Assembly: GCA_003141835.1 (NCBI GenBank)
Contig: PLNR01000006.1
Coordinates: forward strand, 78,558 to 142,557
Length of the DNA: 64,000 bases
Source: Candidatus Omnitrophota bacterium
Lineage (GTDB): Bacteria > Omnitrophota > Gorgyraeia > Pluralincolimonadales > Pluralincolimonadaceae
Reading direction: 5' to 3'
The notes below the pieces were generated by a model. The model was not told where the DNA came from, searched no databases, and saw only the letters and a program-made list of their open reading frames with translations. Numbering within the stretch: the first letter of the stretch is position 1; the number at the start of each line of letters is the position of its first letter. Of the stretch, positions 4,466-57,380 are shown in pieces. Position numbers and translations under genes: made by a program.

Positions 4466-4474
4466 ATTATACCA
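4466..4474 (-). promoter_or_regulatory. Extended -10 promoter element (TGgTATAAT) for the 4086..4442 gene
   Basis: On the minus strand TGGTATAAT lies about 24 nt upstream of the ATG at 4442, with an AAGGAGGGG Shine-Dalgarno in between. No good -35 is present, which is compatible with an extended -10 promoter. Confidence 0.4.
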
Positions 4475-4498
4475 CAGAAAGCCAAAATGTCTATACCC

Positions 4499-5128
4499 TT
4501 ACCTTACCTTCTCGGCGAGGGCCCTGTAGTTCTCCTTCGGATCGCCTTTCCCGAATATCCCGCTCCCGACGCAAGCGAGGTCGACGCCCGCCTCCTTTAT
4601 CATCAGGATATTTTCCGTTTTCAAGCCGCCGTCCATCGCGATTATAGGCCTGCCGCTGCGCCCTTTTAACGCGCGCGCCTTATCGCATACCTCCGGGATG
4701 AACTTGCTGCCGTAAAAACCCGGGTTCACGGAAAGGAAAAGCAAGACATCAATATCCTTGAAATATCCCTCGACTTTCGACACGGGTGTCTCCGGGTTTA
4801 TCGCGATGCCCGCTTCCATGCCGAGCGCGCGGATCTTCGGGATGAGCCCGGCCGGGTCCTCTTTGGATTCATAGTGGAAGATGATCCTTCCCGCGCCGGC
4901 CCTTTTGAAGGGTTCGAGGTATTTGCCCGGCTCCTCGACCATGAGGTGTATCTCAAGTTTCAGCCCCGTCTTGACCTTCGCCAGGTCCCCGGCAGATATG
5001 CTCTTCGACGGGACGAATTTCCCGTCCATTATGTCTACTTGGACCAGGTCGCAGAAACCTCCGGATTGGGCGATCATCCTTTCCAATTCGCCGGGTTTGT
5101 CGGTCAGCAATGCCGGTACTATCCTCAT
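4499..5128 (-). CDS. rpe: Ribulose-phosphate 3-epimerase
   Basis: 209 aa. Motifs LVQVDIMDGKFVP and LLFLSVNPGFYGSKF are diagnostic of RPE. Confidence 0.9.
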   Translation of the reverse strand: MRIVPALLTDKPGELERMIAQSGGFCDLVQVDIMDGKFVPSKSISAGDLAKVKTGLKLEIHLMVEEPGKYLEPFKRAGAGRIIFHYESKEDPAGLIPKIRALGMEAGIAINPETPVSKVEGYFKDIDVLLFLSVNPGFYGSKFIPEVCDKARALKGRSGRPIIAMDGGLKTENILMIKEAGVDLACVGSGIFGKGDPKENYRALAEKVR

Positions 5129-5709
5129 CAGGTCGCTCCTTTGTTTATATAATCGAGTAAGAATTCCGCGAGATTATTTGAGGCGAGATCGACGTCCCTC
5201 TTGAGGCGCAGCAGCCTCGGCAGCCACAAGAGCTGCAGGAAAGACCTCGGCAGCTCATCCAACAGCGTGTCGCTTACCGCCTTCATGGCAATAAAGGGTA
5301 TACCATGTTTTTTTGCCACCGATAAGACCGCCCCTGATTCCATGTCAACGATGATGGCTCCTTCCCTTTCTGCTGCGGCCGTCTTCTCCTCACAAGTAAA
5401 TAACGGACGCGGGGAGCAGAACAACTTACGGTCTTCCGGGTCGGATACCACCACGTCACCGATCTTAAGGTCCCTGGAAAGCGCGCCGCAAAACCCGGCC
5501 GAGATTATCAGGTCGGGCTTGAAATCCCTTATGATATCCTCAGCCGTCACCCCGGCCTTGTCCGCGCCCATGCCGCTCCTCGCCAGTATCACATATCCGT
5601 CCGCCGCCTCTATCACGGGCCGCATCGACCTGAAAAGATCGATCCCCAAACGGCGCGCCAGGGGCCTGAGTTCCCAGTAAAACGCGAAGATAACGGCGAT
5701 CTTTTTCAT
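5128..5709 (-). CDS. PNP/MTA-nucleosidase-family protein; HpnG-like (adenosylhopane nucleosidase) candidate
   Basis: 193 aa. The IIVDMESGAV motif is typical of MTA/SAH-nucleosidase-type phosphorylases. It sits in the same operon as shc, hpnH, an hpnA-like gene and ispH, and its start overlaps the ispH stop. Confidence 0.65.
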   Translation of the reverse strand: MKKIAVIFAFYWELRPLARRLGIDLFRSMRPVIEAADGYVILARSGMGADKAGVTAEDIIRDFKPDLIISAGFCGALSRDLKIGDVVVSDPEDRKLFCSPRPLFTCEEKTAAAEREGAIIVDMESGAVLSVAKKHGIPFIAMKAVSDTLLDELPRSFLQLLWLPRLLRLKRDVDLASNNLAEFLLDYINKGAT

Positions 5710-6548
5710 TTCCGGCTGATATTCTTAAGTTTATTTTTGACTTCCTCTATCAGGACGTCGGGCGTCGACGCGCCCCCGATTATGCCCACGGACTTCACGC
5801 CTTTTAACGCGGAAGGCTTCAGGTACTTCGCGCTCTCTATCTGGATAGTGTTCTTGTTGTAATTATGGCAGAGTTTCTTGAGCTTCAGGGTGTTCGAACT
5901 GTGATGGCTTCCGACAACTATCATGAGGTCGACCTTTTGGGCAAGCTTTACTGCGTCTTCCTGCCTCTTCCTTATGTCGGCGCATATGGTGTTGATTATC
6001 TTTATTTCATGCGCTACCCTCATCACCTCGGCGACGACGTCCCTGCAGAGCTCCACCGAATGGGTAGTCTGGAAGATAAGCCCGACCTTGTATTTCAGTT
6101 TCGCCTGGTCCACCTCTTTATGGGTGGCTACCACGAGCGCCTTGGCGCTCAGGTGGCCCAGTATCCCTTTTATCTCGGCGTGGTCTTTATCCCCCACTAT
6201 CAGGACCTGGTAGCCTTCCTCTTCCAATTTCTTCGCCGCGATCTGCGCCTGCCTGACGATGGGACACGTGGCGTCGACTATCTCTATCTTCTTCGCCGCG
6301 ACCTTAGCCCTCTCGTCGGGAGATATCCCGTGCGCGCGAATGATAAGTATACCGTCTTTTTTTACGTCATTTATGCTCTTCGTTTCCCTCAAACCCCTTT
6401 CGGAAAGTTTGCGGGTTATGGCGTCGTTATGCACGAGCTCGCCGGTTATGTAGGCCGGCACGCCTTTCGAAAGCGCTTCTTCGGTCAGCTTGACCGCGCG
6501 GTTCACGCCGAAACAGCATCCTATCTTCTTGGGTGTCAATATCCTCAT
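5706..6548 (-). CDS. ispH: 4-hydroxy-3-methylbut-2-enyl diphosphate reductase IspH/LytB
   Basis: The conserved N-terminus MRILTPKKIGCCFGVNRAV carries the first Fe-S Cys. Further Cys lie in DATCP and NTICAD. The track start at 6704 would overlap the upstream gene. The ATG at 6548 gives an ATGA overlap with the hpnA-like stop. Confidence 0.9.
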   Translation of the reverse strand: MRILTPKKIGCCFGVNRAVKLTEEALSKGVPAYITGELVHNDAITRKLSERGLRETKSINDVKKDGILIIRAHGISPDERAKVAAKKIEIVDATCPIVRQAQIAAKKLEEEGYQVLIVGDKDHAEIKGILGHLSAKALVVATHKEVDQAKLKYKVGLIFQTTHSVELCRDVVAEVMRVAHEIKIINTICADIRKRQEDAVKLAQKVDLMIVVGSHHSSNTLKLKKLCHNYNKNTIQIESAKYLKPSALKGVKSVGIIGGASTPDVLIEEVKNKLKNISRK

Positions 6549-7561
6549 TTCTTTTCTCCCTGTTTCACGTAACCTTTCGAGCGGAACCAATCCACTGATT
6601 TTCGGAAGGCGTTCCCGATGTCGCCCTGCGGGAGCCCGAGTTCCTTTACCGCCTTTGAGCAGTCGAACGCGAACGGCTTGCCGCCAAGCCTCAAGCCCTC
6701 CCACGGGATCAACGGCTCTTTATGCGTAATATACTGGCATACCTTCTGCGACACAAAACCAAGCGGCAAAAAAAGCGCCGGGGGGAATTTCATCGCAGGC
6801 TTCGGCTTGCCTGACGCCTTGCTTAAGATATCAAACACTTCATCGAGTGTCAGGTTATCGGCTCCGAAGATATAGCGTTCCCCGGTCTTTCCCTTCTCTG
6901 CCGCGAGCAGGTGTCCGGCGGCGACATCCTCCACATCGATATAATTTATGACGGTATCTATATAACCCGGGAGCCTGCCGTTCAGATAATCGAGTATCAT
7001 CTTCCCTGGCGGGGTCAGGTTATAATCCCCTTCGCCCACAGGCGTAGTCAGGCTGACGGTGACGATCGGCAGCCCTGCCTTGACATATTTAACCGCCTCC
7101 TGGTAAGCCAGCCATTTTGAGCGGGCGTAGTGGCCCGGCATATTCTCCAAACCCAGGACCGCTCCTTCGTCTGACGGTTTCTTTTTCGTGCCCCCTTTTA
7201 AAATGGCCGCCGTGCTGGTAAAGATGACCTTATCGACCCCTTCTTCGAGCGCGGCCTGGAATAAATTCTTCGTCCCTGTCCAGTTGATATCATAGACTTC
7301 CTTGGGATTCGCATACCAGAGATGGACATAAGAGGCGAGGTGGTATACTGTCTTTACCCCGGCAAGTGCTTTTTTGAGCGAATCCTGGTCGCGCAGGTCG
7401 CCGTAGGCGAACTCGACATCGCATTTCAGTTTCTCCTCCCCGATGAGGTTAACGAGATTGGAATTCTTGCGCACGAGGCAGCGGACCCGGTCCCCTCTTT
7501 TGTCCAATAACCTCACTACGTGCGAACCCACGAACCCGTTCGAACCGGTGACGAGTATCAT
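6545..7561 (-). CDS. NAD-dependent epimerase/dehydratase, HpnA-like (hopanoid-associated sugar epimerase family)
   Basis: 338 aa. Rossmann motif MILVTGSNGFVGSHVV and catalytic YARSK (YxxxK). Operon context with shc, hpnH and ispH. Confidence 0.75.
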   Translation of the reverse strand: MILVTGSNGFVGSHVVRLLDKRGDRVRCLVRKNSNLVNLIGEEKLKCDVEFAYGDLRDQDSLKKALAGVKTVYHLASYVHLWYANPKEVYDINWTGTKNLFQAALEEGVDKVIFTSTAAILKGGTKKKPSDEGAVLGLENMPGHYARSKWLAYQEAVKYVKAGLPIVTVSLTTPVGEGDYNLTPPGKMILDYLNGRLPGYIDTVINYIDVEDVAAGHLLAAEKGKTGERYIFGADNLTLDEVFDILSKASGKPKPAMKFPPALFLPLGFVSQKVCQYITHKEPLIPWEGLRLGGKPFAFDCSKAVKELGLPQGDIGNAFRKSVDWFRSKGYVKQGEKK

Positions 7562-8535
7562 CTTTTAGTCTCCTGTTTAGGCGGCATCCAATATATGAAT
7601 AACCCGAAACCCGCCCAAGAAAGTTCCCGTATCCTCTTTATTATGCTGAGCGCGACCCCCATCTCCCCTCCTATGCCGAGGGCCGCCAGCGCCGCGTAAC
7701 CCGCGCCTTCCTGGACGCCTATCGCCGCCGGAACGAAGAAGAAAGCCGAATTAGCCGTCTTCATGAAAACTTCTATCACGAACGCTTTTACCCAATCGAC
7801 CGGGACGCCCAAGAAATATAATATTATATAGACCTCTATCGCTCCCGCGGCCCACCCAAGCAGGTGGAACGCGAAAGAACCGCAAAACCGCAGCCGCTCC
7901 TTAAGGTAAAAATCCCCTATTGTCCTGTCTATCTCTTCGATGCGGTCCTGCTTATCCTCAAAGGTCCCGCTTAATTTAAACCTGCGCGCGAACCGCAGTC
8001 CCACCATGAACAGCCCCTTCCTCTGGAGCAGGAGGAAGACTACAAATAACCCTAGGACGCCTATGAACGTCCAAAGTATCCCGGCGGCGACAACGCTTTC
8101 AAGCCGCAAAAATTTCAAGGCCAGCACGACGCCTATGAGCAGGAACGCGATCTTGCTCAGGAAGAGCGTGGTCTTGGCGATCACGACGCTGGCAAGCCCG
8201 TCGACCATATCGACGCCGTAGCGCCTGTTCAGAAGGATCGCCTTGACCGGTTCCCCTCCGATATACGCCGACGGGGTCGTGTAGTTAAGCGCTTCACCCG
8301 CCTGGCGCACCAGGAAAAACCTCCAAAGGCCCGGTAGTTTCACTCCTCTCCTGAATGACAGCCGCCAGCCCATCGTGTCGAAAAAATATATTACGAGATA
8401 AGCGAATATCACGGCCAATATGCGCCAATTTAGCGATACTACCTGGCTCCATATAAGCGCAGGGCCGGACCTCGCGATTATCCAGGCGAAAAGCGATACC
8501 GCGACGATAAATATTATTTTTTTAAATAAGCTCAT
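7558..8535 (-). CDS. UPF0104/flippase-like membrane protein (HpnL-like; lysyl-PG synthase C-terminal domain-like)
   Basis: 325 aa, about 8 predicted TM helices. It has the UPF0104 architecture usually found next to lipid glycosyl/phosphotransferases. It sits between the hpnA-like gene and a CDP-alcohol phosphatidyltransferase. Confidence 0.6.
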   Translation of the reverse strand: MSLFKKIIFIVAVSLFAWIIARSGPALIWSQVVSLNWRILAVIFAYLVIYFFDTMGWRLSFRRGVKLPGLWRFFLVRQAGEALNYTTPSAYIGGEPVKAILLNRRYGVDMVDGLASVVIAKTTLFLSKIAFLLIGVVLALKFLRLESVVAAGILWTFIGVLGLFVVFLLLQRKGLFMVGLRFARRFKLSGTFEDKQDRIEEIDRTIGDFYLKERLRFCGSFAFHLLGWAAGAIEVYIILYFLGVPVDWVKAFVIEVFMKTANSAFFFVPAAIGVQEGAGYAALAALGIGGEMGVALSIIKRIRELSWAGFGLFIYWMPPKQETKR

Positions 8536-9179
8536 TACTGCCGGCCTGTCAAATATTTGAAGTTCACAGCCAAAAGGACGATGCAGAATATATTGGCGCC
8601 TATCGCTCCCAGCCAGAGGAAAAGTTCCATCCTGTTCAGGACCGCGAAAAGCAGGACCACGAGCGAAAGATCACCGGCGCAAAAGACCTCGATCGCGCGA
8701 TCGGCGGCCGTTATCCTTTTTATCTCCCCCTCCGGCGCTTTCGGCATGCCATGGATGGCCGGGCCGAAGTTCATCGTCTTCTGCAGTATCGCCACAAATG
8801 TCGACAAAAACGTTCCTATGCCCGCCGCGACACCCAGGAATAGCATTATCGGGTCCTGGGTAAGGCGGAAGAGCCCCACGCTGATCCCGACAAAGGTAAG
8901 CGTGTGGATGCAGCAGTCTACCACAGTGTCCATCCAGCTCCCGAACGTCGAAGAGAGCCCCCTCGCCCGCGCCACTTCCCCGTCGCAATTGTCGAGGATA
9001 TAAAACATCTCGAACATGACGGCGCCGGCTATAAAGCCCGCTTTTGTCCCGGCCGAGAAAAAAAGGAACGCCAGGATCCCGGCCAGCCCCCCCAACAGGG
9101 TTATGAAATTAGGGTGCAGTCCGGACCTGATAAAAAAACCCGTGAACGGCGCAGCCAAAACGCGATTTATGCTTCTCAT
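8535..9179 (-). CDS. CDP-alcohol phosphatidyltransferase family protein
   Basis: 214 aa membrane protein. The signature D-x2-DG-x2-AR...G...D-x3-D is present as DNCDGEVARARGLSSTFGSWMDTVVD. Confidence 0.85.
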   Translation of the reverse strand: MRSINRVLAAPFTGFFIRSGLHPNFITLLGGLAGILAFLFFSAGTKAGFIAGAVMFEMFYILDNCDGEVARARGLSSTFGSWMDTVVDCCIHTLTFVGISVGLFRLTQDPIMLFLGVAAGIGTFLSTFVAILQKTMNFGPAIHGMPKAPEGEIKRITAADRAIEVFCAGDLSLVVLLFAVLNRMELFLWLGAIGANIFCIVLLAVNFKYLTGRQ

Positions 9180-9212
9180 CCCCCAACCCTCCCGGTCCCC
9201 GCCTTCCGGCGA

Positions 9213-9929
9213 TCAGCGTATCTTCAGGGATTCGGCTTTCTTTATATCTTCCGGAAAATCTACCTCGGTCCACTTCAACCCGGTTATCTCCTCGATCCCG
9301 GCCGGGACGTGCCTGATAAAATTATCGAGCGCTTCTTCGTAATCGGCCCCCCGGTCCAGGGCAATAGTCTCTTCGACGGCTTTAAGGAATTCCCTCCTGT
9401 GAGCGGCCGATGTCTTGAAAAAACCGACACCCTCGCCCACCTCATCGTGTTTGCGCGTTATCCGCCGCGCTATCTGGGTAACCCTCCAGCCGAGGACCGC
9501 GACCTTCATCTCCTCCCCGCTCTCGCTGAAATGCCTGTCTATAAGAAAACAATTTTCATTTTTGGAGCCGATAAGCCTTCCGATCAGGCGCGATTCAAAA
9601 ACGACGTCGGCGTCCATCAACAAAAGGTCATCCGCTGTTGAAAACTCCCTCCGCGCGACCCACAGGGAGACGATACTGCCGAGTTTATATTCCCTGTTTT
9701 CGATATATCTTATCTTCGCGCCGTTATGCTCTTCTCCGACCGCCTCCGCAATCATCTCCTTAAGATAGCCGGTGACCAAGCATATATCCCTGACGCCGGC
9801 GGCCGCGAGGGAATCGAGCATGCGTTCCAGGATGGTCCTTCCACCGATACGGATAAGGGATTTCGGGGTCTTGTCAATAATGGGTTTTAGGCGGTTGCCG
9901 ATCCCGGCCGCAAGTATTATCGCTTTCAC
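9213..9929 (-). CDS. Nucleotidyltransferase (LicC/phosphocholine- or aminoethylphosphonate-cytidylyltransferase-like)
   Basis: 238 aa. N-terminal MKAIILAAGIGNRLKP...PKSLIRIGG is the sugar/phospho-alcohol nucleotidyltransferase fold signature. Confidence 0.75.
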   Translation of the reverse strand: MKAIILAAGIGNRLKPIIDKTPKSLIRIGGRTILERMLDSLAAAGVRDICLVTGYLKEMIAEAVGEEHNGAKIRYIENREYKLGSIVSLWVARREFSTADDLLLMDADVVFESRLIGRLIGSKNENCFLIDRHFSESGEEMKVAVLGWRVTQIARRITRKHDEVGEGVGFFKTSAAHRREFLKAVEETIALDRGADYEEALDNFIRHVPAGIEEITGLKWTEVDFPEDIKKAESLKIR

Positions 9930-11041
9930 CCCGCCGCCCTCTTTCCTTTATGCGGGCCAGGTTTCCTTAGCACGGACTTTAACGACGCCAAAAACCTGCG
10001 CGCATCACCGGCGGTTATCTGCCCCATATTCGCTATCCTGAAAATGACCTTCTTGAGTTTTGACTGGCCCGCGTAGATGATAAAACCTTCCGCTTTCAGC
10101 GCATCATGCAACCTGGTGTAAGTCATCCCTTTAGGGAGGCGCAGCGCGGTTATCGTATTCGAAAGGTATTTTGGCGCGATGAGGTATTCAAAACCGGCGG
10201 CCTCGAAACCTTTCCTTAGAAAGACCGCCAGGTTTTTATAACGTTTAACGCGGTTATTCACCCCTTCTTTCAAAAGCTCGTCGAGCGCGACATCCAGGGC
10301 GTAAAACGCCTGGACCGCCGGCGTAAAGAGCGGCTCGCCTTTCTTCTGCCCCTCGAGATTCGAGGGGATATCGAAATACAACGAACGCGGGGCGATCTTT
10401 TTCAGCCCTGGCAGGGCGGTCTTTTTTACCAGCACAAACGATATCCCGGGGATGCCCTCTATGCACTTGTTGGCGGTCCCGACGCAAAGCCCGACGCCCG
10501 CCTTACCGGGATCCAGTTCTTCGCCGCCCAACGCGCTTATGGAATCCAGGAGATAGAGTTTTTTGTATTTCCTGCACAGCTTGCCTATGCCGTATACGGG
10601 GTTCAAGATCCCGGTCGACGTCTCGTGATGCACCATCGCTATAACGGAGATATCTTTATTTTTCCTTATCTTTTCTTCAGCGGCATCTATATCCGGCGTC
10701 TTTTTCACGTCGGAGGCAAGGTTTATAAGGCCTATGCCGTGCCTTCTCGCTATCTCGGCTATCCTTCCGGCGTAAATACCGTTATTAACCACCAACATCT
10801 TTTTGCCCCGCGGGACAGACGAGACGACCGCGGCCTCCAATGCCGCCGTACCTGAACCGGTAAAGAATACAGCCTCGTAAGCTCCGGCTATGCCGAACGC
10901 CCGGAGCAGTTTTTTCGCGCAGCCTGTCATGAGCCTGCCGAACTCCGGTTCCCGGTGGCACATATCCGGCGCGAGAAGCGACCTCCTCACCTTTTCCTTG
11001 ATATTCACCGGCCCGGGATTCAACAGTACGTATCTTTTCAT
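9926..11041 (-). CDS. Class V aminotransferase, 2-aminoethylphosphonate:pyruvate (PhnW)/serine-pyruvate type
   Basis: 371 aa. N-terminus YVLLNPGPVNI...HREPEF matches the LLTPGPxx...HRxxxF pattern of the PhnW/AGXT family. The PLP Lys region is TANKCIEGIPG. Confidence 0.7.
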   Translation of the reverse strand: MKRYVLLNPGPVNIKEKVRRSLLAPDMCHREPEFGRLMTGCAKKLLRAFGIAGAYEAVFFTGSGTAALEAAVVSSVPRGKKMLVVNNGIYAGRIAEIARRHGIGLINLASDVKKTPDIDAAEEKIRKNKDISVIAMVHHETSTGILNPVYGIGKLCRKYKKLYLLDSISALGGEELDPGKAGVGLCVGTANKCIEGIPGISFVLVKKTALPGLKKIAPRSLYFDIPSNLEGQKKGEPLFTPAVQAFYALDVALDELLKEGVNNRVKRYKNLAVFLRKGFEAAGFEYLIAPKYLSNTITALRLPKGMTYTRLHDALKAEGFIIYAGQSKLKKVIFRIANMGQITAGDARRFLASLKSVLRKPGPHKGKRAAG

Positions 11042-11589
11042 GCGTTTTTGAACCTTTTCGCTATCTCAGGAGGGGCGATGCCGACCCTCGGCACTTTTTC
11101 CGAAGGATCGCGCCCCACTTTTACCAGGATAAAACTCGGCCCCTCTTTTTTCAGGCAATCCTTGAATGCTTCGGCAAAATCCTGCCCGAGGTCTTTCTTT
11201 ATGACGTTTTTTATCCCGCATCCTTCGGCTGCCCGCGCCAGGTCCACCCGGGGGGAGATGGTCGGCTGGCCGCCCGTCGAATCATAGCATTCGTTATCGA
11301 GCACTACGTGGATATAGTTTTTTGGTGAGATATTCGATATCATCGAAAGCACGCCGAAGTTCATGAGCAGGTTACCGTCCCCGTCCAGGACGACGACCTT
11401 CTTTCCCGGCCGGGCCATCGCGAACCCCAGGCCGATCGATGACGCCTGGCCCATAGATCCGAGCATATAGAAATTCCGCGGCCGGTCTTTCGCGTTGAAG
11501 GCATCGCGGGAGATGAACCCGTTGGCGCAGACGACATATTCGTCGCCTATAAGGGAGATTATCTTCGTTATCGCCTCGCGCATGATCAT
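11038..11589 (-). CDS. Phosphonopyruvate/sulfopyruvate decarboxylase beta subunit (ComE-like, TPP-binding C-terminal domain)
   Basis: The TPP motif GDGNLLMNFGVLSMISN...N is present. The track start at 11619 (MHLHQ...) is an N-terminal extension that overlaps the alpha gene. The ATG at 11589 (MIMREAIT) forms an ATGA overlap with the alpha stop. Confidence 0.75.
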   Translation of the reverse strand: MIMREAITKIISLIGDEYVVCANGFISRDAFNAKDRPRNFYMLGSMGQASSIGLGFAMARPGKKVVVLDGDGNLLMNFGVLSMISNISPKNYIHVVLDNECYDSTGGQPTISPRVDLARAAEGCGIKNVIKKDLGQDFAEAFKDCLKKEGPSFILVKVGRDPSEKVPRVGIAPPEIAKRFKNA

Positions 11590-12059
11590 TCCAGCGTGTC
11601 CTCTTTGATGAAGATGCAATATGGCTTGCCTTTCGCGATCTCTTTATCGGCCTCGGCCAGGGCCGCGGCGAGATCCTCCCTGCCGCATACGCTGTTGCGG
11701 ATACCGAATGTCTCCATAAGCTCGACGCAATGCCTGCCCATGATTATGTGCTCCGGGGCGTCCTTCCCGCCGTATCCGCGGAAACTGACAAGCATAAGGA
11801 CCGGGATGTCATAGATCATGTTGAGGCTGGTGAGGACATTCAGTGAATAGCCCAGGCCGGAATTCTGCATCAGGACGCAGGGCTTTCTTCCGCCGAGATA
11901 CGCGCCGGCCGCCATGCCCAGCGCAGTGTCCTCCCTGACCGCCGGGATATATTCCCCGGCGAGGGCGGTTATTATGCCTCCCAGGAGGGAACAGGGCACA
12001 CCGGTAAAAAAATCGAACCCCAGGCCTTTAAGTCTCGTCTTTAGCGTTGTCGCATCCAT
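11586..12059 (-). CDS. Phosphonopyruvate/sulfopyruvate decarboxylase alpha subunit (ComD-like, TPP pyrimidine-binding domain)
   Basis: 157 aa. FFTGVPCSLLGGI...ALGMAAGAYLGGRKPCVLMQNSGLG is the N-terminal domain of the Ppd/ComD family. Confidence 0.75.
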   Translation of the reverse strand: MDATTLKTRLKGLGFDFFTGVPCSLLGGIITALAGEYIPAVREDTALGMAAGAYLGGRKPCVLMQNSGLGYSLNVLTSLNMIYDIPVLMLVSFRGYGGKDAPEHIIMGRHCVELMETFGIRNSVCGREDLAAALAEADKEIAKGKPYCIFIKEDTLE

Positions 12060-12070
12060 ACCGCTTCCTA

Positions 12071-12931
12071 TCAGACCGCCCTGGCGAACTTCCTGTATAT
12101 TATATTGGATATCTCGTCTTCGAGGTCATGCAGGAATTTCAGTTCGGCGTCGGCCCTCTGGTATTCGTTCACATCCATATACCTGAGAAAATCCCTCAGG
12201 CCCATGTCAACGATCTCGTAGGGGATAGCCGGCTGGCCCATCTCGCCCAGCCTTATTATTATTGCCTTCATGAGAGCCTCCGGCTTCAGCTCGACGTCCC
12301 AGACCTTGCTCTTTGCCACTTCTTTACGGAACGGGATTATATTCTCCGGCTTATAGAAATCCCCCCTGAACTTCATGTAATCTATTTTCGACCAAAAATC
12401 CCACTGGGCCGAACAGAGCGAACAATTGGGGAGGAATATCTGGACGGGGTTGTTATAGGTATCGAAATAGGTGTGCGAGAGCAGGCTCACCGCGGCCGAG
12501 AGCTTGTCCGTGGATATCTTGGTCACTCTCCCGTCGCCGACCACATCCCTGGCGTCGTCGAGCAGCTTAAGGAATCCGGGCGCCTCTTCGCTTATGCGCG
12601 TGAAAGCGTATATCTTCTTTTCGAGCTTCTGCCTTTTTGCGGCGTCGGCCGGCGGCGTGCCGTCAAATTCTTTCCGCAGCTGCGCCGCCTTCCCGTCCAC
12701 GAACCTGCCCAGGGCCGCAAAATCTTTCTTCTCCGCCTCCGGCCTCGCGAAAAGCTCGAGCGTGACGTCGAGGAAATCAGGCTGGTTCTCGAGTATATGG
12801 GCGTAGACCCTGTGGAAATGCGCGGGTTTCTGGTCGATAACGGGTATCACGGAATATATCGCGGCGCCAAGGTCAAGCTTACTGGAATCCAAAAGCCTCG
12901 CCGCCAAAACCATATGAGTCCCCCAGTCCAT
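12071..12931 (-). CDS. Hypothetical protein, possible Zn-dependent phospholipase C / S1-P1 nuclease-fold protein
   Basis: 286 aa with no signal peptide. N-terminus MDWGTHMVLAARLL resembles the W-x-x-H zinc-ligand start of the Zn-PLC/P1 family. Several conserved His/Asp follow (AHFHRVYAH, SHTYFD). A strong AAGGAG Shine-Dalgarno lies 5 nt upstream. Confidence 0.4.
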   Translation of the reverse strand: MDWGTHMVLAARLLDSSKLDLGAAIYSVIPVIDQKPAHFHRVYAHILENQPDFLDVTLELFARPEAEKKDFAALGRFVDGKAAQLRKEFDGTPPADAAKRQKLEKKIYAFTRISEEAPGFLKLLDDARDVVGDGRVTKISTDKLSAAVSLLSHTYFDTYNNPVQIFLPNCSLCSAQWDFWSKIDYMKFRGDFYKPENIIPFRKEVAKSKVWDVELKPEALMKAIIIRLGEMGQPAIPYEIVDMGLRDFLRYMDVNEYQRADAELKFLHDLEDEISNIIYRKFARAV

Positions 12932-12944
12932 GTTTCTCCTTTAT

Positions 12945-13016
12945 GGGGACGTCCCATTGGGGGACGCTCCATTTATCTATTTTCATCTAATGGGGTGTCC
13001 CCCAATGGGACGTCCC
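12945..13016 (-). repeat. Inverted-repeat element, copy 1 (two 26-nt arms made of GGGGACGTCCC-like palindromic units around a 21-nt A/T-rich core)
   Basis: Arm A (12945-12970) is ggggacgtcccattgggggacgctcc. Arm B (12992-13017) is ggggtgtcccccaatgggacgtcccc, the near-exact reverse complement of arm A. The element fills the gap between the hpnH stop (13017) and the Shine-Dalgarno/ATG of the 12071..12931 gene. Confidence 0.8.
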
Positions 13017-14015
13017 CTAGGTGAACTGCCAGCCGATCAAAGTCATTATATCCCTGAATGATTTCCCTTCGAGCACGCTGGCCGGCTCGAAGCCGCAATG
13101 GACCGCGCATTCCGCGCAGCGCGGGTTCTTGCTTTTGGGCCCGTACTTCTTCCATTCGGTCTTTTCGATAAGTTCCTTGTAAGTGGCGAAATGCTTGTCC
13201 GCAAGCTGGTAACAGGGCGAACGCCATCCTATGGGGTTGCGCGTCGGCGTCGACCAGGGCGCGCAATCCAGGTCGCGCTTGCCCTGCACAAATTCAAAAT
13301 ATAGCGGCGAGCCGAGAAAATTGTATTTTTTGAACTCCGGCTCAAGTTTCCGGAAGAAATCCGCGAGTTCTTTCTTGCGGAAGAAGAACTCCTCGCCTAC
13401 CTGCGGGTACCCGTAGGCCGGCGATATCAGGAAACCGTCCACCCCGGCGCCCTGGAGGGTCTTGAACAATTGCTTAAGCTCGTTTATATCCGTCTGCCTG
13501 TAGATGGTCGTATTGGTGCAGACGAAGAAACCCTTCTTCTTCGCCGCCTTTATCGCCTCGATCACCCTGGCGTATGTCCCCTTAAGCCCGGTTATCGCGT
13601 CATGCGTCTTCTCCAGCCCGTCGATATGGAAATTTACCATGAGGTTTCCGCTCGGCTTCAGCTTGTCGATCTTGTCCTTGAAAAGCAGGCCGTTGGTGCA
13701 GAGGTATATATATTTTCCCTTCCTGGCGAGTTTCTCTATCAGCTCGGAGATATACGGGTAGACGAGCGGCTCTCCGCCGCAGATCGACACTATCGGCGCC
13801 CCGCACTCATCCGCCGCCTTGAGGCATTCGGCGACGGTCATCATCTTGTGCAGGTCGCGCTTATATTCCCTTATGCGCCCGCAGCCTTCGCACGATAAGT
13901 TGCACATTAACGACGGCTCCAGCATCAAGACAAGCGAGAACCGTTTATTGTTCCTGAGCTTGTTCGCGATTATGTGTTTCGTCATTCTGGCCGTTAAGCC
14001 GGGCTTGAACCTCAT
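13017..14015 (-). CDS. hpnH: Radical SAM adenosyl-hopene transferase HpnH
   Basis: 332 aa. Radical-SAM Cys triad CNLSCEGCGR, plus C-terminal cysteines (CAPW...CYQ...CAECAVHCG) typical of HpnH. Lies immediately downstream of shc. Confidence 0.85.
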   Translation of the reverse strand: MRFKPGLTARMTKHIIANKLRNNKRFSLVLMLEPSLMCNLSCEGCGRIREYKRDLHKMMTVAECLKAADECGAPIVSICGGEPLVYPYISELIEKLARKGKYIYLCTNGLLFKDKIDKLKPSGNLMVNFHIDGLEKTHDAITGLKGTYARVIEAIKAAKKKGFFVCTNTTIYRQTDINELKQLFKTLQGAGVDGFLISPAYGYPQVGEEFFFRKKELADFFRKLEPEFKKYNFLGSPLYFEFVQGKRDLDCAPWSTPTRNPIGWRSPCYQLADKHFATYKELIEKTEWKKYGPKSKNPRCAECAVHCGFEPASVLEGKSFRDIMTLIGWQFT

Positions 14016-14018
14016 TTT

Positions 14019-15920
14019 TCAGACCTTTGTCTTTCCGCGGTTGGCCGCATATTCCGAGAGGGCAATAAGAGGAAAATAAACGGAATAAAGTTCGTAACGC
14101 AGGTAGCATACCCTCGGAAAACCCGTCCCGGTAAAACTATCCTCTTTCCAGTTGCCGTTCGCCTCCTGGCTCCCTATGAGATAATCTATTCCGCGCGCGG
14201 CTGCGCCGCTCTCGTGGTCGCCTGCGGCGAAGAGTATGAAAAGCGCCCAGGCCGTCTGCGAAGCGGTCGATGGGCCTTTGCCTTTCTTGAACGGGTCCTC
14301 GTAAGTCGCCGCCGATTCCCCCCACCCCCCATCGTCATTCTGGACGCCGTATATCCATTTCGCCGCGGCTTCGAGCTCGCCCTTCGACGATCCCCCGGAC
14401 GAGAAAGAAAGGCCGCGCGCGGCAAGGAACGTGCCGTATATATAATTCACTCCCCACCTGCCGTACCACGTGCCGTCGGCTATCCTGTCTTTTTTCAAAA
14501 ATCTTATCGCGTCCTTTAGCGGGGATTTTTTAGCGTCGAAGCCGAGCCGGCCCAAAAGCTCGCACGTCCTTCCGGTTACATCCGCGCACGTTGGGTCGAG
14601 CATCGCATTATGGTCCGAAAAAGGCACCTTGTTCAGGAAACGCTTGTTGTTATCCCTGTCGTAAGAGCTGAACCCGCCGTCGCTGGACTGCATCTTCAGC
14701 ATCCAGTCAAGGCCGCGGTCGAATCCGGCTTTCTTCTGCGGCTCTTCCGTCCCCATATCTATCTGCGTCAACCCGAGCAATACCTGCGCGGTATCGTCTA
14801 TATCCGGGTAAAATTCGTTCCTGAACTGGAAATACCATCCTCCGGGCGAAGCGTCCCCGGCCTTTACCTTCCAATCGCCGGTCTCGTTCACCTGCTTCGA
14901 GAGGAGCCAGCGCCCGGCCTTCCTCATCGCATCGTGGCCCTTCGGGAAACCCGATATCCCGAGGGCGTATGCGCAGAGCGCCGTATCCCAGACCGGCGAT
15001 ACGCAGGGCTGCATCTCCGCCTCATTGCCGTTATCTATAGTTAATTTCAGAACTTCTTCGAGATTCGATTTCAAGAGCGGATGGTCGTTCTTATAGCCCA
15101 GGCAGCTCAATGCCATTACGGAATTTATCATTGCCGGATAGATGGCGCACAAGCCGTCGCTCTTGTCGAACCTTTTTATCATCCATTGCCCGGCTTTCTT
15201 CACTGCCGCGCCCTTAAAGAACGCTAATCTCAATTTATATAAGGTCTTTATCGTGCCATCCAGGAAGAGGAAAAGGTTCTTCCAACTTACCACCCGCATG
15301 TCCCATCGTATGCCGCAATCTTTCGTCCTGTGTCCGGCCGTGTAAAGCTCATCGACGCTGAAATTTTTCGCGAGGGGCCGCACCGGCCTGGAAGCCCAGA
15401 TCACCGAAAGCGGCACGACGATCGTCCTCGTCCAGGCGCTGAAATCGTAAATATTCACCGGGGACCACTCCGGGAGCAGGATAAGCTCCGGCGGTATAGC
15501 CGGCGCTGCGTCCCAGTTCCCGAGGCCGAACATGGCCAGGTAGAACCTGTTATAGCTGTTGGACTTTTCGATTCCGCCGAGGCTTAATATTATCCGGCGG
15601 TCCCGCGCCATCAGCTGGTTCCCTTCTTCGAAGCCTTTAAGCTTCAGCGCCATATAGTTCTTTATGGTGGCGTTGAGTTCCGGCGGGCCGCCCGGATAGA
15701 CCGGCCATCCCCCGTCCTCAAGGCGCCCGGCCAAAATAAAATTCACAAGTTTACCTTCCAGCTCCTCGTCCCTTATGCCAAGGAACCGCAGAAGGAAGAT
15801 AGTATCCGCCTCCAGGCCCAGGTCCATATGGAAATTCGAATGGAAATGGCCGTCGGCATCCTGTTTGCCCAGGATATACTCCTGGGCGCTGTTTATCGCG
15901 TTCGAGAGTCTCTCGTTCAT
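14019..15920 (-). CDS. shc: Squalene-hopene cyclase
   Basis: 633 aa. Catalytic DIDDTA motif (DxDDTA) and multiple QW repeats (GGWxxxxxG...). The C-terminal GGWGE segment is present. Confidence 0.93.
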   Translation of the reverse strand: MNERLSNAINSAQEYILGKQDADGHFHSNFHMDLGLEADTIFLLRFLGIRDEELEGKLVNFILAGRLEDGGWPVYPGGPPELNATIKNYMALKLKGFEEGNQLMARDRRIILSLGGIEKSNSYNRFYLAMFGLGNWDAAPAIPPELILLPEWSPVNIYDFSAWTRTIVVPLSVIWASRPVRPLAKNFSVDELYTAGHRTKDCGIRWDMRVVSWKNLFLFLDGTIKTLYKLRLAFFKGAAVKKAGQWMIKRFDKSDGLCAIYPAMINSVMALSCLGYKNDHPLLKSNLEEVLKLTIDNGNEAEMQPCVSPVWDTALCAYALGISGFPKGHDAMRKAGRWLLSKQVNETGDWKVKAGDASPGGWYFQFRNEFYPDIDDTAQVLLGLTQIDMGTEEPQKKAGFDRGLDWMLKMQSSDGGFSSYDRDNNKRFLNKVPFSDHNAMLDPTCADVTGRTCELLGRLGFDAKKSPLKDAIRFLKKDRIADGTWYGRWGVNYIYGTFLAARGLSFSSGGSSKGELEAAAKWIYGVQNDDGGWGESAATYEDPFKKGKGPSTASQTAWALFILFAAGDHESGAAARGIDYLIGSQEANGNWKEDSFTGTGFPRVCYLRYELYSVYFPLIALSEYAANRGKTKV

Positions 15921-16705
15921 ATGTTAAGGCAGTATTTGACTATTTTTTCAAGCTCTTTTATGTCTACGGAAGTGTTTTTGCAAGGCCCTTCAGGGCGCTT
16001 GTTCGGGATGCCGAAGACCGGCATCTTCGGGGCGGTGTCCTGTATGCCTGAGATAAGGTCCCTCTCGCACGCGACGCCTATCACCGCGTCGGGATTGTTG
16101 TCTTTAACGGCTTTCCTGGCTTCATCGCCTCCAAAAGCCGTGTAAGCCACAAACTGGTATTTTTCGCCTAGTTCTTTTACCTTGGCCCTTACCTCGGCCG
16201 AGAGACAGCGCGGCAGGAGGACGAGTATCTTCTTTGAGCTCTTTCCCGTCCGCGTAGCGTACATAAGGTCGTTATGGAATTTGACGAAGGAATTGCCTAT
16301 CCTGTCTCTCGCTATGCCGGATATCCCGGCCAACCTCACCGCTCCGGAGAGTAAGACGCGCAACGAGATCCGCCTGACAAAATAAGACGGCGCAAGCTTG
16401 ACTTTCAAGAGCGCAGATAAGACCTGCGATAGGTACCAGGCAGCGAGTAAAGAAGCGGAAATACAGAATGCCGCACCGGCCATGCCGGTAAACCCGGGCC
16501 CAAAGCTTTCAAAACGCGGCAACGCGAGGTACCAAAACAACCAAACTCCAAGCAAGACAAGGATTAATACCAAAAAAGAAAAGAAGATGAATAGCGATTT
16601 CGGTGCGTCGCTCGAGCTTCCGCCCTTGGAGCCGGGCTGCCAATCGGCCCACTCGTCCCCCAATAACCTGTCTTCCAGCCTCTTACCCTGCCCTGTCTCT
16701 TTCAT
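15917..16705 (-). CDS. DUF116-family membrane protein
   Basis: 262 aa. Two N-terminal TM helices, then the conserved KKILVLLPRCL motif (DUF116 LLPHCL-like). Stop overlaps the shc start (ATGA). Confidence 0.55.
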   Translation of the reverse strand: MKETGQGKRLEDRLLGDEWADWQPGSKGGSSSDAPKSLFIFFSFLVLILVLLGVWLFWYLALPRFESFGPGFTGMAGAAFCISASLLAAWYLSQVLSALLKVKLAPSYFVRRISLRVLLSGAVRLAGISGIARDRIGNSFVKFHNDLMYATRTGKSSKKILVLLPRCLSAEVRAKVKELGEKYQFVAYTAFGGDEARKAVKDNNPDAVIGVACERDLISGIQDTAPKMPVFGIPNKRPEGPCKNTSVDIKELEKIVKYCLNI

Positions 16706-16751
16706 AAGTGGATAATTATATCACGAATAGGGGGTTGGCGCAATAATGCTA

Positions 16752-17750
16752 TTATGCGGATTTGCGGACGACCAGCTTGGGAGCGAAGAAACGCGTGAAG
16801 GATTTCTTATGGGGGGAGTTTATCGAGTTGAGCAGGTCTGAGCCGGCCTCATAGGAGATATCTGTAACCGGCTGGTCGATGGTGGTTATGGGAGGGTCGA
16901 AGAGCTCGCATATCGGTATGTTATCGAACCCGATTACGGCGACATCCTCCGGGACCTTCTTACCCGCCGCCTTGACAGCTTTTATCGCGCCGATGGCCAT
17001 CCTGTCGTTCGCCGCGAAGATCCCGTCGGGCGGGGAGTCCAGCGACAAGAATTTCTTGGTGGCGATCTCGGCGTCCTCGTACCTGAAATAGCCGCGCTCC
17101 ACGTAATCCGGCCTGAATTGCAGCCCGGCCTCTTCAAGCGCCTGCTTATAGCCCTTTAACCTCTCCTCGGCGTCGAACCAGTTCTCATGCCCGTGGATAA
17201 AGGCTATCCTCTTCCTGCCGGTGTCTATGAGATATTTTGTGGCGATATATCCGCCCTTCCTGTTGTCGCAGCCAAACGAGTCGGCCCTGTCTGAATACGC
17301 GAATAGCAGCGCTACCGGCACCTGGTACTTCCTCAATTCTTCGAGTTTCTCCGTATCGTCTTTCGAAATGGCGACCAGTATCAATCCGCCGACCAGTTTG
17401 CTCTTGTACATCTGGAGGCATTGGTTGCCGTCGAATTTGCCCTGGGTGAATATCATGAGCTGGTAGTTGTTCTCGTTGGCGGCGCGGGCCACCCCTTTGA
17501 TAGTATCTATCGCGAAAAAATCGGTATTTATAAAAGTGTCTTTGGGAAATATGAGGCCTATTACGTTTATCTTCTTTGAGGCGAGGCTCGCGGCGTGGAT
17601 GTTAGGGAAATATTTCTCTTTGTCGAGATGTTTTAAAATGAGCTCCCGCGTACCATCGGCCACGTTCTTGTCGTTCTTCAGGACCCTGGAGATGGTCCGG
17701 CGCGAGATGTTGAGTTTCTGCGCGAGTTCCTCCAGCGACTTTACGCTCAT
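16752..17750 (-). CDS. LacI-family transcriptional regulator
   Basis: 332 aa. N-terminal HTH LEELAQKLNISRRTISRVL followed by a periplasmic-binding-protein-like sugar-binding domain. Confidence 0.88.
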   Translation of the reverse strand: MSVKSLEELAQKLNISRRTISRVLKNDKNVADGTRELILKHLDKEKYFPNIHAASLASKKINVIGLIFPKDTFINTDFFAIDTIKGVARAANENNYQLMIFTQGKFDGNQCLQMYKSKLVGGLILVAISKDDTEKLEELRKYQVPVALLFAYSDRADSFGCDNRKGGYIATKYLIDTGRKRIAFIHGHENWFDAEERLKGYKQALEEAGLQFRPDYVERGYFRYEDAEIATKKFLSLDSPPDGIFAANDRMAIGAIKAVKAAGKKVPEDVAVIGFDNIPICELFDPPITTIDQPVTDISYEAGSDLLNSINSPHKKSFTRFFAPKLVVRKSA

Positions 17751-18005: not shown

Positions 18006-18659
18006 TTACTTTTTCCTTCTCAACCCAAATATACCTACTAAACCTGAACCGAGCAATAAAAGGCTCGCCGGTTCCGGGACAGCAGCCGTATCGAGCTGTG
18101 CATCATCCCAGTAGAACGTACCGGTGTTTGAAGAGAGGTTCTTTTCAACCAGGAGGTTGGCCAGGACAATTGCCGTGCCATCCGGTGTTTTGAACCCTGC
18201 CGGAAGCGCCAACTGCGTCCAGTCAAACGTTCCTGTCGGAGCTGTAACAAACGTTTTAGCGATCTGAGCACCGTCGGAGTTCTTGAACTCAAGCTGAAGC
18301 TTGGGGTTCGCGCCATTACGGGCTGTGCTCTTAAGCCATACTGAAGCTGAGATGTCCTGATTACCGCCGATCTCTACTTCCTGGCCCCATCCTGCCCAAG
18401 TGTTTTTGTTGCCTGATGTAGGCGAAGTAAGTATTGAGATCCTTCCGCTCTGGTTGCCTGTATGCTTTTCCGCGGTTGACGTCTTCAGTTCGACATCACT
18501 AATCTCAGGAAACTGACGCAGGCCCCACCAGTTCTCCGGATCCGCATTGTTGGTCATAGGATTTTCGAAGCTCGAGTTGATCAACATGTTGGCATGCGCT
18601 GTTGAGGACAACAAAAGCACCATACCCGCTACTAACCCAAGGAAGAACAGTTTCTTCAC
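18006..18659 (-). CDS. Secreted CBM-like beta-sandwich protein with C-terminal PEP-CTERM sorting signal
   Basis: 217 aa with a GTG start. Signal peptide MKKLFFLGLVAGMVLLLSSTAHA. The C-terminus VPEPASLLLLGSGLVGIFGLRRKK is a PEP-CTERM anchor (PEP, hydrophobic helix, basic tail). Confidence 0.8.
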   Translation of the reverse strand: MKKLFFLGLVAGMVLLLSSTAHANMLINSSFENPMTNNADPENWWGLRQFPEISDVELKTSTAEKHTGNQSGRISILTSPTSGNKNTWAGWGQEVEIGGNQDISASVWLKSTARNGANPKLQLEFKNSDGAQIAKTFVTAPTGTFDWTQLALPAGFKTPDGTAIVLANLLVEKNLSSNTGTFYWDDAQLDTAAVPEPASLLLLGSGLVGIFGLRRKK

Positions 18660-20084: not shown

Positions 20085-20109
20085 TAAAACACCTTTCTCC
20101 CTCATAGGA

Positions 20110-52654: not shown

Positions 52655-53419
52655 TTAACCGAACCTCCCGGTGATATAATCTTCCGTCCTCTTGTCTTTC
52701 GGGGCCGTGAAGATATCCTGCGTCTTGCCGAATTCTATCAGTTCGCCCAGGAGGAAGAACGCGGTGTAATCCGAGACGCGGGCGGCCTGCTGCATGTTAT
52801 GGGTCACGATGACTATAGTATAATACTTTTTCAATTCGAGTATGAGCTCTTCTATCTTGCTGGTGGATATAGGATCGAGGCTCGCGCACGGCTCGTCGAA
52901 CAGCAATACCTCCGGCTCGACCGCGAGACAGCGCGCTATGCAAAGCCTCTGCTGCTGCCCGCCGGATAATTTGAGCGCGTTCTCGTGTATCCTGTCCTTT
53001 ACCTCGTCCCAGAGAGCTGCTTTTTTCAGCGACTCCCCGACCTTCTTCTCGATGAAATTCCCGTCGGTTATCCCGTTTATCTTAAGCCCGTAACTGACAT
53101 TCTCAAATATGCTCTTCGGGAACGGGTTCGGCTTCTGGAAGACCATCCCTATGCGCCTCCTGATCTCGACCGGGTCCACCGACGGGTCGAAGATGTCCTC
53201 TTCCTCCAGTAATATCGCCCCTTTCAATGACGTGTTGGGCACAAGCTCGTTCATCCGGTTCAAAAGCCTTATGAAAGTCGATTTGCCGCAACCCGACGGC
53301 CCTATGATGGCAGTAACCTGGTTCTTATAAATTTCAATGCTTACCGAACTCAACGCCTGGCGGCTCCCGTAAAAGAAATTTATATCCCTCGCCTCTATTT
53401 TGACTATCCGCCTATCCAT
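52655..53419 (-). CDS. pstB: Phosphate ABC transporter ATP-binding protein PstB
   Basis: 254 aa. Walker [13 protein letters not shown] signature LSGGQQQRL, Walker B LLFDEP. Confidence 0.93.
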
Positions 53420-55144: not shown

Positions 55145-55148
55145 ATGC

Positions 55149-55973: not shown

Positions 55974-55982
55974 TTTTCCTCC

Positions 55983-57284: not shown

Positions 57285-57380
57285 ACCCTCTCCTCTTTTT
57301 GTTGGACTTCCGGTTAGCATGGTGGTTTTTTAACTTCAAGGAGAGTATAAGATTTGAAGGTTACGGACAAAGGGAGGAAA

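Follow-up and report, generated by a model that had tools for sequence, protein, structure and literature searches.

We found, in a 64,000-nt stretch of a Candidatus Omnitrophota genome (contig PLNR01000006.1; hereafter the window), a minus-strand operon of 14 genes in which hopanoid biosynthesis genes enclose a six-gene cassette that codes for a putative polar head-group pathway. We propose that the operon makes extended C35 hopanoids and has its own pathway for their head group, a reading to which we give a probability of about 50%; that the locus is a hopanoid operon is highly probable. Hopanoids, which are among the major membrane lipids of bacteria and serve as geological biomarkers, are known to carry sugars, cyclitols, amines, and adenosine as head groups. 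The novelty lies in the head-group cassette of this hopanoid cluster and in the new protein family that forms part of it; the combination suggests a hopanoid head group that has not yet been described.

The 14 open reading frames (ORFs) follow each other head to tail from 16705 to 4499 (about 12 kb), with gene starts chosen from homologue alignments and public gene calls. The junctions, in order, measure -4, +3, +85, +11, -4, -4, -4, +33, -1, -4, -4, -4, and -1 nt. An earlier note on this DNA had described a single tight operon with nearly all junctions overlapping or very short, and this is confirmed for 11 of the 13, which are overlaps or gaps of at most 11 nt. The two wider ones are the 85-nt spacer between hpnH and the gene of the new family, which contains an inverted repeat, and a 33-nt gap 5' of the CDP-alcohol transferase gene that the note did not mention. 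Apart from this gap and the +11 junction, the genes within the cassette, and those that lead on into hpnL, hpnA, ispH, and hpnG, meet in 4-nt or 1-nt overlaps. The comparative synteny check that the note had suggested showed the same 14 genes in the same order in three other Omnitrophota metagenome-assembled genomes (MAGs) (L008, L010, and L042), and genes 3 to 14 in a further one (L011). Since the order recurs in other MAGs, the arrangement is not an accident of assembly.

The products of shc, hpnH, and ispH exceed the curated thresholds of their families (Table 1), in support of the earlier reading of the locus as hopanoid-related, and the DIDDTA motif reported for shc is indeed present in the translation. 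HpnH consists of a Radical_SAM domain (PF04055) and a C-terminal DUF3463 domain (PF11946), with the cluster motif CNLSCEGC (CxxxCxxC). The start of ispH was placed at 6548 instead of 6704, the start of the longest ORF, in agreement with the public gene call of 280 aa. The HpnA-, HpnL-, and HpnG-like proteins are a different case: the hopanoid models are their best matches, yet all three fall below cut-off. The HpnL-like protein, at 172.4 against 195.65 for TIGR03476, does pass the broader TIGR00374 (62.5 against 43.2) and matches PF03706 with 120 bits, and for the HpnG-like protein only membership in PNP_UDP_1 is certain. According to the earlier note, the hopanoid reading would be wrong if the PNP-family and epimerase genes scored below the hopanoid-associated models. 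Taken literally, this is what we observed (84 against 187.1 and 357.2 against 367.65, respectively), but the demand is too strict, because an NC10 hopanoid locus with full-scoring HpnH (551) and HpnA (460; 459.7 against a cut-off of 368) also has a sub-threshold HpnG-like protein (99.5), as well as an HpnL-like protein below threshold. This suggests that the models are tuned to other phyla. With an HpnG-like gene of the PNP family present, the side-chain extension from adenosylhopane to ribosylhopane that had been proposed is reasonable. Also as stated before, hpnCDE are absent from the window, where neither tblastn with an NC10 squalene synthase nor Pfam searches of 10 further ORFs found a squalene-synthase-type gene.

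Table 1. Features of the operon and its immediate surroundings, in window coordinates and in the order of transcription; profile scores in bits.
Feature	Position	Strand	Evidence and remarks
LacI-family regulator	16752..17750	-	Pfam LacI and Peripla_BP_3; 46 nt upstream of the first operon gene
DUF116 membrane protein	15917..16705	-	PF01976 95.8 (cut-off 25); 4-nt overlap with shc start
Squalene-hopene cyclase (SHC; shc)	14019..15920	-	TIGR01507 638.3 (cut-off 431.1); DIDDTA (DxDD) in translation
HpnH adenosylhopane synthase (radical SAM)	13017..14015	-	TIGR03470 389.1 (cut-off 225)
Inverted repeat	12945..13017		Perfect 21-nt arms, 12945-12965 and 12997-13017; 31-nt loop; in spacer between hpnH and the new gene
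New conserved protein family (earlier "Zn-PLC-like")	12071..12931	-	No Pfam, NCBIfam, or PDB match; synteny with decarboxylase
Thiamine diphosphate (TPP) decarboxylase alpha subunit (phosphonopyruvate/sulfopyruvate decarboxylase family)	11586..12059	-	TIGR03297 118.3, TIGR03845 113.2; below cut-offs
TPP decarboxylase beta subunit	11038..11589	-	TIGR03846 185.9 (cut-off 221.5); TIGR03297 181.2
Class-V aminotransferase, 2-aminoethylphosphonate (AEP) type	9926..11041	-	TIGR03301 324.9 (cut-off 360.8)
LicC/PntC-type nucleotidyltransferase	9213..9929	-	Pfam NTP_transf_3 and NTP_transferase
CDP-alcohol phosphotransferase, membrane protein	8535..9179	-	PF01066 45.3 (cut-off 22)
HpnL-like flippase-like membrane protein	7558..8535	-	1-nt overlap with CDP-alcohol transferase stop
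HpnA-like NAD-dependent short-chain dehydrogenase/reductase	6545..7561	-	TIGR03466 357.2 (cut-off 367.65), 10 bits short
IspH (HMBPP reductase)	5706..6548	-	TIGR00216 258.4 (cut-off 187.85)
HpnG-like PNP/MTAN-family nucleosidase or phosphorylase	5128..5709	-	TIGR03468 best match, 84 (cut-off 187.1); PF01048 86
Rpe-type epimerase	4499..5128	-	PF00834 155; TIGR01163 166.8 (equivalog cut-off 212.6)

The cassette lies between hpnH and the hpnL-like gene and consists of the gene of the new family and five genes from 12059 to 8535. A "head-group module" had been noticed here before, and it is present, but its genes had been left without identities; they code for a split TPP decarboxylase, an aminotransferase, a cytidylyltransferase, and a CDP-alcohol phosphotransferase. 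The best PDB match of the decarboxylase alpha subunit is 9iz3_A, a "putative phosphonopyruvate decarboxylase alpha subunit" (2e-34), and that of the beta subunit is 9iz3_B (6e-38). The phosphonopyruvate decarboxylase model TIGR03297 describes a single-chain enzyme with a cut-off of 312.5, and the scores of the two window subunits on it (118.3 and 181.2) add up to about 300. The models of the sulfopyruvate decarboxylase ComD/ComE gave 113.2 against 147.95 (TIGR03845) and 185.9 against 221.5 (TIGR03846). For the aminotransferase, the best-matching families are TIGR03301 and NF010006 (251.7 against 296 for the latter), neither of which reaches its cut-off, and the best PDB matches are AEP-pyruvate transaminases and the PntC-AEPT fusion of Treponema denticola (6pd1), all near 1e-51. 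The same fusion is among the best PDB matches of the nucleotidyltransferase (2e-13), together with LicC (1jyk, 1e-14), and on these similarities the protein is probably a cytidylyltransferase. The specificity determinants described for such enzymes (PMC6697681) are steric and do not tell phosphonate from phosphate substrates. The CDP-alcohol phosphotransferase retains the full catalytic motif DxxDGxxARx8Gx3Dx3D, as DNCDGEVARARGLSSTFGSWMDTVVD; its nearest families are the PIP, AIP, and DIPP synthases, and its best PDB match is AF2299 (4o6m). With some reservations, it seems probable that the cassette produces a CTP-activated aminoethyl-phosph(on)ate head group.

The first gene of the cassette codes for the new protein family. 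Its true start is probably 12931, because the N-terminal sequence MDWGTH is nearly invariant across phyla; public gene calls begin six codons later, at Met7 (280 aa; window 12913-12931). Neither single-sequence nor profile searches found a relative in Pfam, NCBIfam, or the PDB. The family has 164 homologues in a collection of 5.8 billion proteins and 121 cluster representatives among 1.84 billion proteins, with 50 to 67% identity between phyla and 44 invariant positions over 38 sequences. Among the invariant residues are H40, H45, H153, D33, D157, N160, N161, and several arginines, and H6 is nearly invariant (at least 90%), a pattern consistent with an active site that binds metal and anions. 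The AlphaFold (AF2) model built from the family alignment is all-alpha, with a mean confidence (pLDDT) of 90.2, and a Foldseek search of the PDB with it returned nothing with an E value below 1. The protein is therefore predicted, from the model, to be an all-alpha enzyme that is possibly metal-dependent.

The earlier note had labeled this protein "Zn-PLC-like", which would make it a zinc-dependent hydrolase similar to phospholipase C (PLC) that acts on membrane lipids. The N-terminal WGTH and the conserved H6, D33, H40, H45, H153, and D157 would be compatible with a metal site, and 3 of 40 family members show weak matches to YdjM (PF04307). Nevertheless, the label found no support, and we consider it highly improbable: there was no match to PF00882, PF02265, or any other Pfam family, NCBIfam and PDB sequence and profile searches were empty, and Foldseek retrieved no PLC or P1-nuclease fold. 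A relation to YdjM was rejected as too weak, as the comparison of profiles by hhalign with the Escherichia coli protein gave a probability of only 14%, on the motif SHxxxD. An analogy with PsfC was rejected too. PsfC is a solved enzyme with the PHP fold, unlike the all-alpha model obtained here, and neither a Bacillales homologue of the new protein nor the family profile had any PDB sequence match.

To place the cassette in context, we scanned one genome per GTDB species, which gave 50 loci, and mapped the 14 window proteins on them by tblastn. A subset of 39 loci comes from Omnitrophota, Brocadiales/Planctomycetota, NC10, and two MAGs labeled Nitrospirae, and 30 of these have enough downstream sequence to be judged. 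The decarboxylase directly follows the new gene in 29 of the 30; the sole exception, an Omnitrophota MAG (L017), carries at this junction a 7-kb insertion (11347-17434) with RadC and type I restriction-modification genes (HsdM-like and HsdS-like). Hopanoid genes, one or more, are present in 33 of the 39 loci, although the partners differ. In NC10, the cassette is flanked by hpnH/hpnG-like and hpnL/hpnA-like genes, and in one group of this phylum an hpnL-like gene is interleaved between the transferase and the nucleotidyltransferase, while the new gene is duplicated in tandem. In Brocadiales, its back-to-back neighbors are hpnJ, hpnK, and hpnI, each of which passes its cut-off. In one Bathyarchaeota locus, the new gene occurs together with those of the decarboxylase, aminotransferase, and nucleotidyltransferase; hopanoid genes are missing there, and a GT-C/PMT_2 glycosyltransferase stands in place of the CDP-alcohol transferase. 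These comparisons indicate that the new gene goes with the soluble head-group enzymes and that the transferase is the context-specific part. Because of the position of the decarboxylase in 29 of the 30 loci and the archaeal cooccurrence without hopanoid genes, we assign the new protein, on gene content and order, to the head-group half of the putative pathway.

In known pathways, PEP (phosphoenolpyruvate) mutase and the decarboxylase that follows it are normally encoded by adjacent or fused genes, as the equilibrium of the mutase lies far towards PEP. We searched for the mutase by scanning six-frame translations for EDKxxxxxNS and by tblastn with two PepM proteins, and found none in the window or within 10 kb of the new gene in the 48 loci outside the Bacillales; Pfam searches of ten further window ORFs did not reveal one either. 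Accordingly, the gene arrangement typical of Pnt/AEP clusters, PF13714 with EDKxxxxxNS beside or fused to pathway genes, was seen neither in the window nor in the 48 loci. PEP mutase was found only in the two Bacillales loci, where the homologues of the new protein are distant (25 to 28% identity; hhalign probability 99.8%) but keep the conserved His, Asp, and Asn residues.

Both of these are fosfomycin-like phosphonate clusters of cultured bacteria, Priestia flexa NBRC 15715 (L054:5269-11058) and Salinibacillus kushneri (L055:8793-14573). They encode an HMGL-like Pmm synthase, an HppE-like cupin, a FomA-like amino-acid kinase, a thymidylate-kinase-like protein, a Psf3-like reductase, PepM, and the homologue of the new protein, with a haem-oxygenase-like iron enzyme encoded divergently; no PsfC homologue was seen in them. 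These clusters link the new family to phosphonate chemistry and show that it can coexist with PepM.

The following pathway can be put together. By their family membership, SHC converts squalene to hopene, HpnH attaches the 5'-deoxyadenosyl group, which yields adenosylhopane, and IspH supplies isoprenoid precursors. The remaining steps are suggested by best matches and synteny. The HpnG-like enzyme would remove adenine to give ribosylhopane, the precursor of bacteriohopanetetrol (BHT). In the other half of the pathway, the split decarboxylase would convert a 2-oxo acid of the 3-phosphono type to the aldehyde, from which the AEP-type aminotransferase would form 2-aminoethyl-phosph(on)ate. The LicC/PntC-type enzyme would activate this product with CTP, and the CDP-alcohol phosphotransferase would transfer it to a lipid hydroxyl, most plausibly that of a hopanoid polyol; in Brocadiales, the acceptor could be a cyclitol ether of such a polyol. 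The HpnL-like protein may then handle the modified lipid, and the new protein probably supplies or conditions the substrate of the decarboxylase.

Several observations weigh against this proposal. The HpnA, HpnL, and HpnG matches, like those of the decarboxylase and the aminotransferase, all stay short of curated cut-offs, and the decarboxylase matches the sulfopyruvate decarboxylase models equally well. As no PEP mutase was found in the window or within 10 kb at the other loci, a phosphonate product would need an unlinked mutase or new chemistry. The transferase may also use a glycerolipid as its acceptor instead of a hopanoid, and we found no phosphorus-bearing hopanoid in the searchable literature. 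Finally, close orthologues of the new protein in Scalinduaceae (63 to 67% identity) occur without the cassette, beside genes for Fur, TlpA/AhpC-like thioredoxin-fold proteins, rubrerythrin, and NAD(P)H oxidoreductase; therefore, the family is not tied to the head-group pathway alone.

The cassette might make an AEP or phosphoethanolamine head group for glycerolipids or surface glycans, with the hopanoid genes as mere neighbors. Such a role would agree with the Bathyarchaeota locus, in which the soluble enzymes stand beside a GT-C/PMT_2 glycosyltransferase and no hopanoid genes, with the use of inositol phosphates or phospholipids by the families nearest to the transferase, and with the decoration of glycans by known Pnt pathways (PMC6697681). 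It accounts less well for the nesting of the Omnitrophota cassette among hpn genes with overlapping stop and start codons, for its location beside different hopanoid side-chain genes in two further phyla, and for the hpnL-like gene between transferase and nucleotidyltransferase in one NC10 group. On balance, we regard a cassette with no part in hopanoid synthesis as unlikely, and a hopanoid acceptor as having slightly less than an even chance.

That the head group contains a C-P bond has about an even chance. The pathway might be the classical AEP route with PEP mutase encoded elsewhere in each genome, and the new protein would then have an accessory role, for example in hydrolysis, tailoring, or regulation. 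AEP-pathway enzymes are indeed the closest matches of the decarboxylase, aminotransferase, and nucleotidyltransferase alike, and distant homologues of the new protein coexist with the mutase in the Bacillales phosphonate clusters. Yet none of the 48 loci, which represent at least four phyla and one archaeon, has a mutase within 10 kb, and a cassette that moved between phyla would not function in the large majority of genomes if they had no mutase, so we consider this explanation rather doubtful. The same absence would be expected if the decarboxylase acted on a 2-oxo acid other than a phosphonate, such as 3-phosphohydroxypyruvate or sulfopyruvate, so that the head group would resemble phosphoethanolamine, or be a sulfonate such as taurine or isethionate, and would contain no C-P bond. 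The slightly higher score of the beta subunit on the sulfopyruvate than on the phosphonopyruvate model (185.9 against 181.2, with all models below cut-off) and the NC10 locus with two zinc alcohol dehydrogenases nearby and no aminotransferase point in this direction. Nevertheless, the usual mechanisms of a nucleotidyltransferase and a CDP-alcohol transferase could neither activate nor move a sulfonate, AEP transaminases are what the aminotransferase resembles most, and we know of no 3-phosphohydroxypyruvate decarboxylase, which makes such a substrate distinctly unlikely. The boldest solution, and a long shot, is that the new protein is itself a non-homologous replacement of PEP mutase, or another mutase-free source of phosphonopyruvate, with the cassette leading to phosphono-hopanoids in Omnitrophota, NC10, and deep-branching Brocadiales. 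If true, biology would have a second way to form the carbon-phosphorus bond, and these phosphono-hopanoids would be an undescribed class.

The new family also appears in other settings. The tandem duplication belongs to a Methylomirabilota/Planctomycetota group (L045, L046, L048, and L050; e.g., L048:10001-11890), in which conserved residues are no longer present in the second copy (H45N, D157L, and the NN motif), giving it the look of a degenerate partner subunit. The Scalinduaceae MAG Maj_2_bin.64 has two near-identical copies (L025:8524-12527 and L026:9246-13329), with 63 to 64% identity to the protein of the window. A TlpA/AhpC-like gene follows each of them; one copy lies near Fur, rubrerythrin, and NAD(P)H oxidoreductase genes and the other near genes for an HMA-domain protein and DsbD_TM. 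These Scalinduaceae contexts hint at a redox or metal link. In Gemmatimonadota, distant relatives lie 5' of a VanW-like gene. The NC10 locus with no aminotransferase belongs to the Methylomirabilales (L001:16003-18068) and its two zinc-dependent alcohol dehydrogenase genes lie a short way downstream of its hopanoid and squalene-synthase genes; reduction of the aldehyde could take the place of transamination there.

Three other features of the operon are probably outside the mechanism. DUF116 and rpe had been singled out before as not belonging to the standard hpn set. The DUF116 protein is a genuine member of PF01976, and its gene precedes shc in those Omnitrophota loci that extend far enough, but this link is confined to Omnitrophota: the family is large and spread over many phyla, including archaea, and shc was lacking in all three contexts examined outside Omnitrophota. 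We therefore rejected DUF116 as a general partner of hopanoid synthesis. The distal rpe gene codes for an ordinary Omnitrophota type of epimerase in which the first metal-binding residue of His-Asp-His-Asp is replaced by Gln (LVQVDIMDG) in all orthologues. This Gln variant (xQ[VI]DIMDG), which scores below the curated rpe cut-off, is common to diverse Omnitrophota and one Dehalococcoidia MAG (P0446, P0447, P0459, and P0461). Homologues with 53 to 55% identity in two other Omnitrophota genomes are found in non-hopanoid housekeeping contexts (yqeY, prfA, and similar genes). Since the His-to-Gln type is the general form of the phylum with housekeeping neighborhoods elsewhere, a role as a side-chain epimerase that would produce BHT stereoisomers was discarded, and both DUF116 and rpe are probably lineage-specific passengers. 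The inverted repeat, also reported before, is real, with perfect arms, and as RNA it forms a very stable hairpin, with a folding energy of -57.7 kcal/mol (z = -8.8). Thirteen other Omnitrophota loci lack it in the corresponding spacer, and no T-run follows it; we therefore rejected it as a conserved regulatory element. In a public assembly of this organism, a contig ends within the repeat, which looks like a strain-specific insertion.

Upstream of the operon, the LacI-family gene is kept directly before the DUF116 gene in five Omnitrophota loci, and no terminator-like site was found between the two; it may regulate the operon or be cotranscribed with it. The block as a whole is bounded by terminator-like sites, at 17840-17817 and 4059-4026. 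Just past the rpe stop, on the minus strand, there is a near-consensus sigma-70-like promoter (4466-4493; TAGACA, 16-nt spacer, TG-TATAAT; 11 of 12 matches). It is placed to drive a glycine-zipper gene (4442-4086) and, with no terminator at this point, may mark the 3' boundary of the operon. Beyond the LacI gene, the minus strand codes for a PEP-CTERM-anchored protein (18006-18659), a 416-aa ORF (18855-20105), and a 919-aa ORF (20110-22869) that by eye, from its translation, looks like a PAS/GGDEF/HD-type signaling protein. Further away, at 52655-57320 on the same strand, is a block resembling an ABC transporter, with two BPD_transp_1 permease genes (53412-55144). Several window genes have their nearest relatives among proteins of Omnitrophota MAGs.

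We found no report in the searchable literature that links hopanoids with phosphonates, AEP, or phosphonopyruvate decarboxylase. A survey of the gene neighborhoods of shc, published in 2025, mentions neither phosphonates nor CDP-alcohol enzymes and gives HpnL as a protein of unknown function, which it still is (PMC12324291). The pathway proposed here would give HpnL-like proteins a testable role. A CTP-dependent aminoethyl-phosph(on)ate pathway in the hopanoid loci of at least three poorly cultured phyla predicts a new class of composite hopanoids, which workflows based on acetylation or periodate would miss. To our knowledge, all genome surveys of phosphonate biosynthesis have been seeded on PEP mutase (Ppm); hence, a cassette that consistently lacks the mutase and has a new conserved protein in its stead would be invisible to them. 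It may represent either an overlooked source of phosphonates or a new route of the phosphoethanolamine type.

The canonical hpn clusters of proteobacteria (Rhodopseudomonas palustris, Burkholderia, and Zymomonas) contain shc, hpnH, hpnG, hpnA, hpnL, and ispH. The window operon resembles them in its full-scoring shc, hpnH, and ispH, in the presence of hpnA-, hpnL-, and hpnG-like genes, and in the order from hopene through adenosylhopane to ribosylhopane. It differs in that hpnCDE, hpnN, hpnO, hpnP, and hpnR are absent from the window, hpnA, hpnL, and hpnG are sub-threshold, and the six-gene cassette is inserted between hpnH and hpnL. Pseudomonad-type fosfomycin clusters (PepM, Pmm synthase, PsfC, Psf3, HppE, and FomA/B) are comparable to the Bacillales clusters that encode a homologue of the new protein. 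Unlike the window, those Bacillales clusters have PepM and lack the set of decarboxylase, aminotransferase, and transferase, and their homologue is only 25 to 28% identical.

The pairing of a soluble cytidylyltransferase with a membrane CDP-alcohol transferase, which takes a phospho-alcohol from a CDP donor and passes it on to a polyol, is shared with the IPCT/DIPPS and AF2299-type systems. Both window proteins match the bifunctional model NF041135, although far under its cut-off (88 and 43 bits against 580). Unlike IPCT/DIPPS, the window has no inositol-phosphate synthase genes, and the cassette has a supply line of its own in the decarboxylase and aminotransferase. A precedent for this logic is the phosphonyl tailoring (Pnt)/AEP pathway (Ppm, Ppd, AEPT, and PntC), in which AEP is activated with CTP and then transferred to glycans or lipids (Rice et al. 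2019, PMC6697681). The window combines, in one operon, a decarboxylase, an AEP-type aminotransferase, and a LicC/PntC-type cytidylyltransferase, followed by a transferase, as in that pathway. It departs from it in the decarboxylase, which is split in two, in the position of PEP mutase, its defining enzyme, which is taken by an unrelated conserved protein, and in the final transferase, which is a CDP-alcohol phosphotransferase in a hopanoid context.

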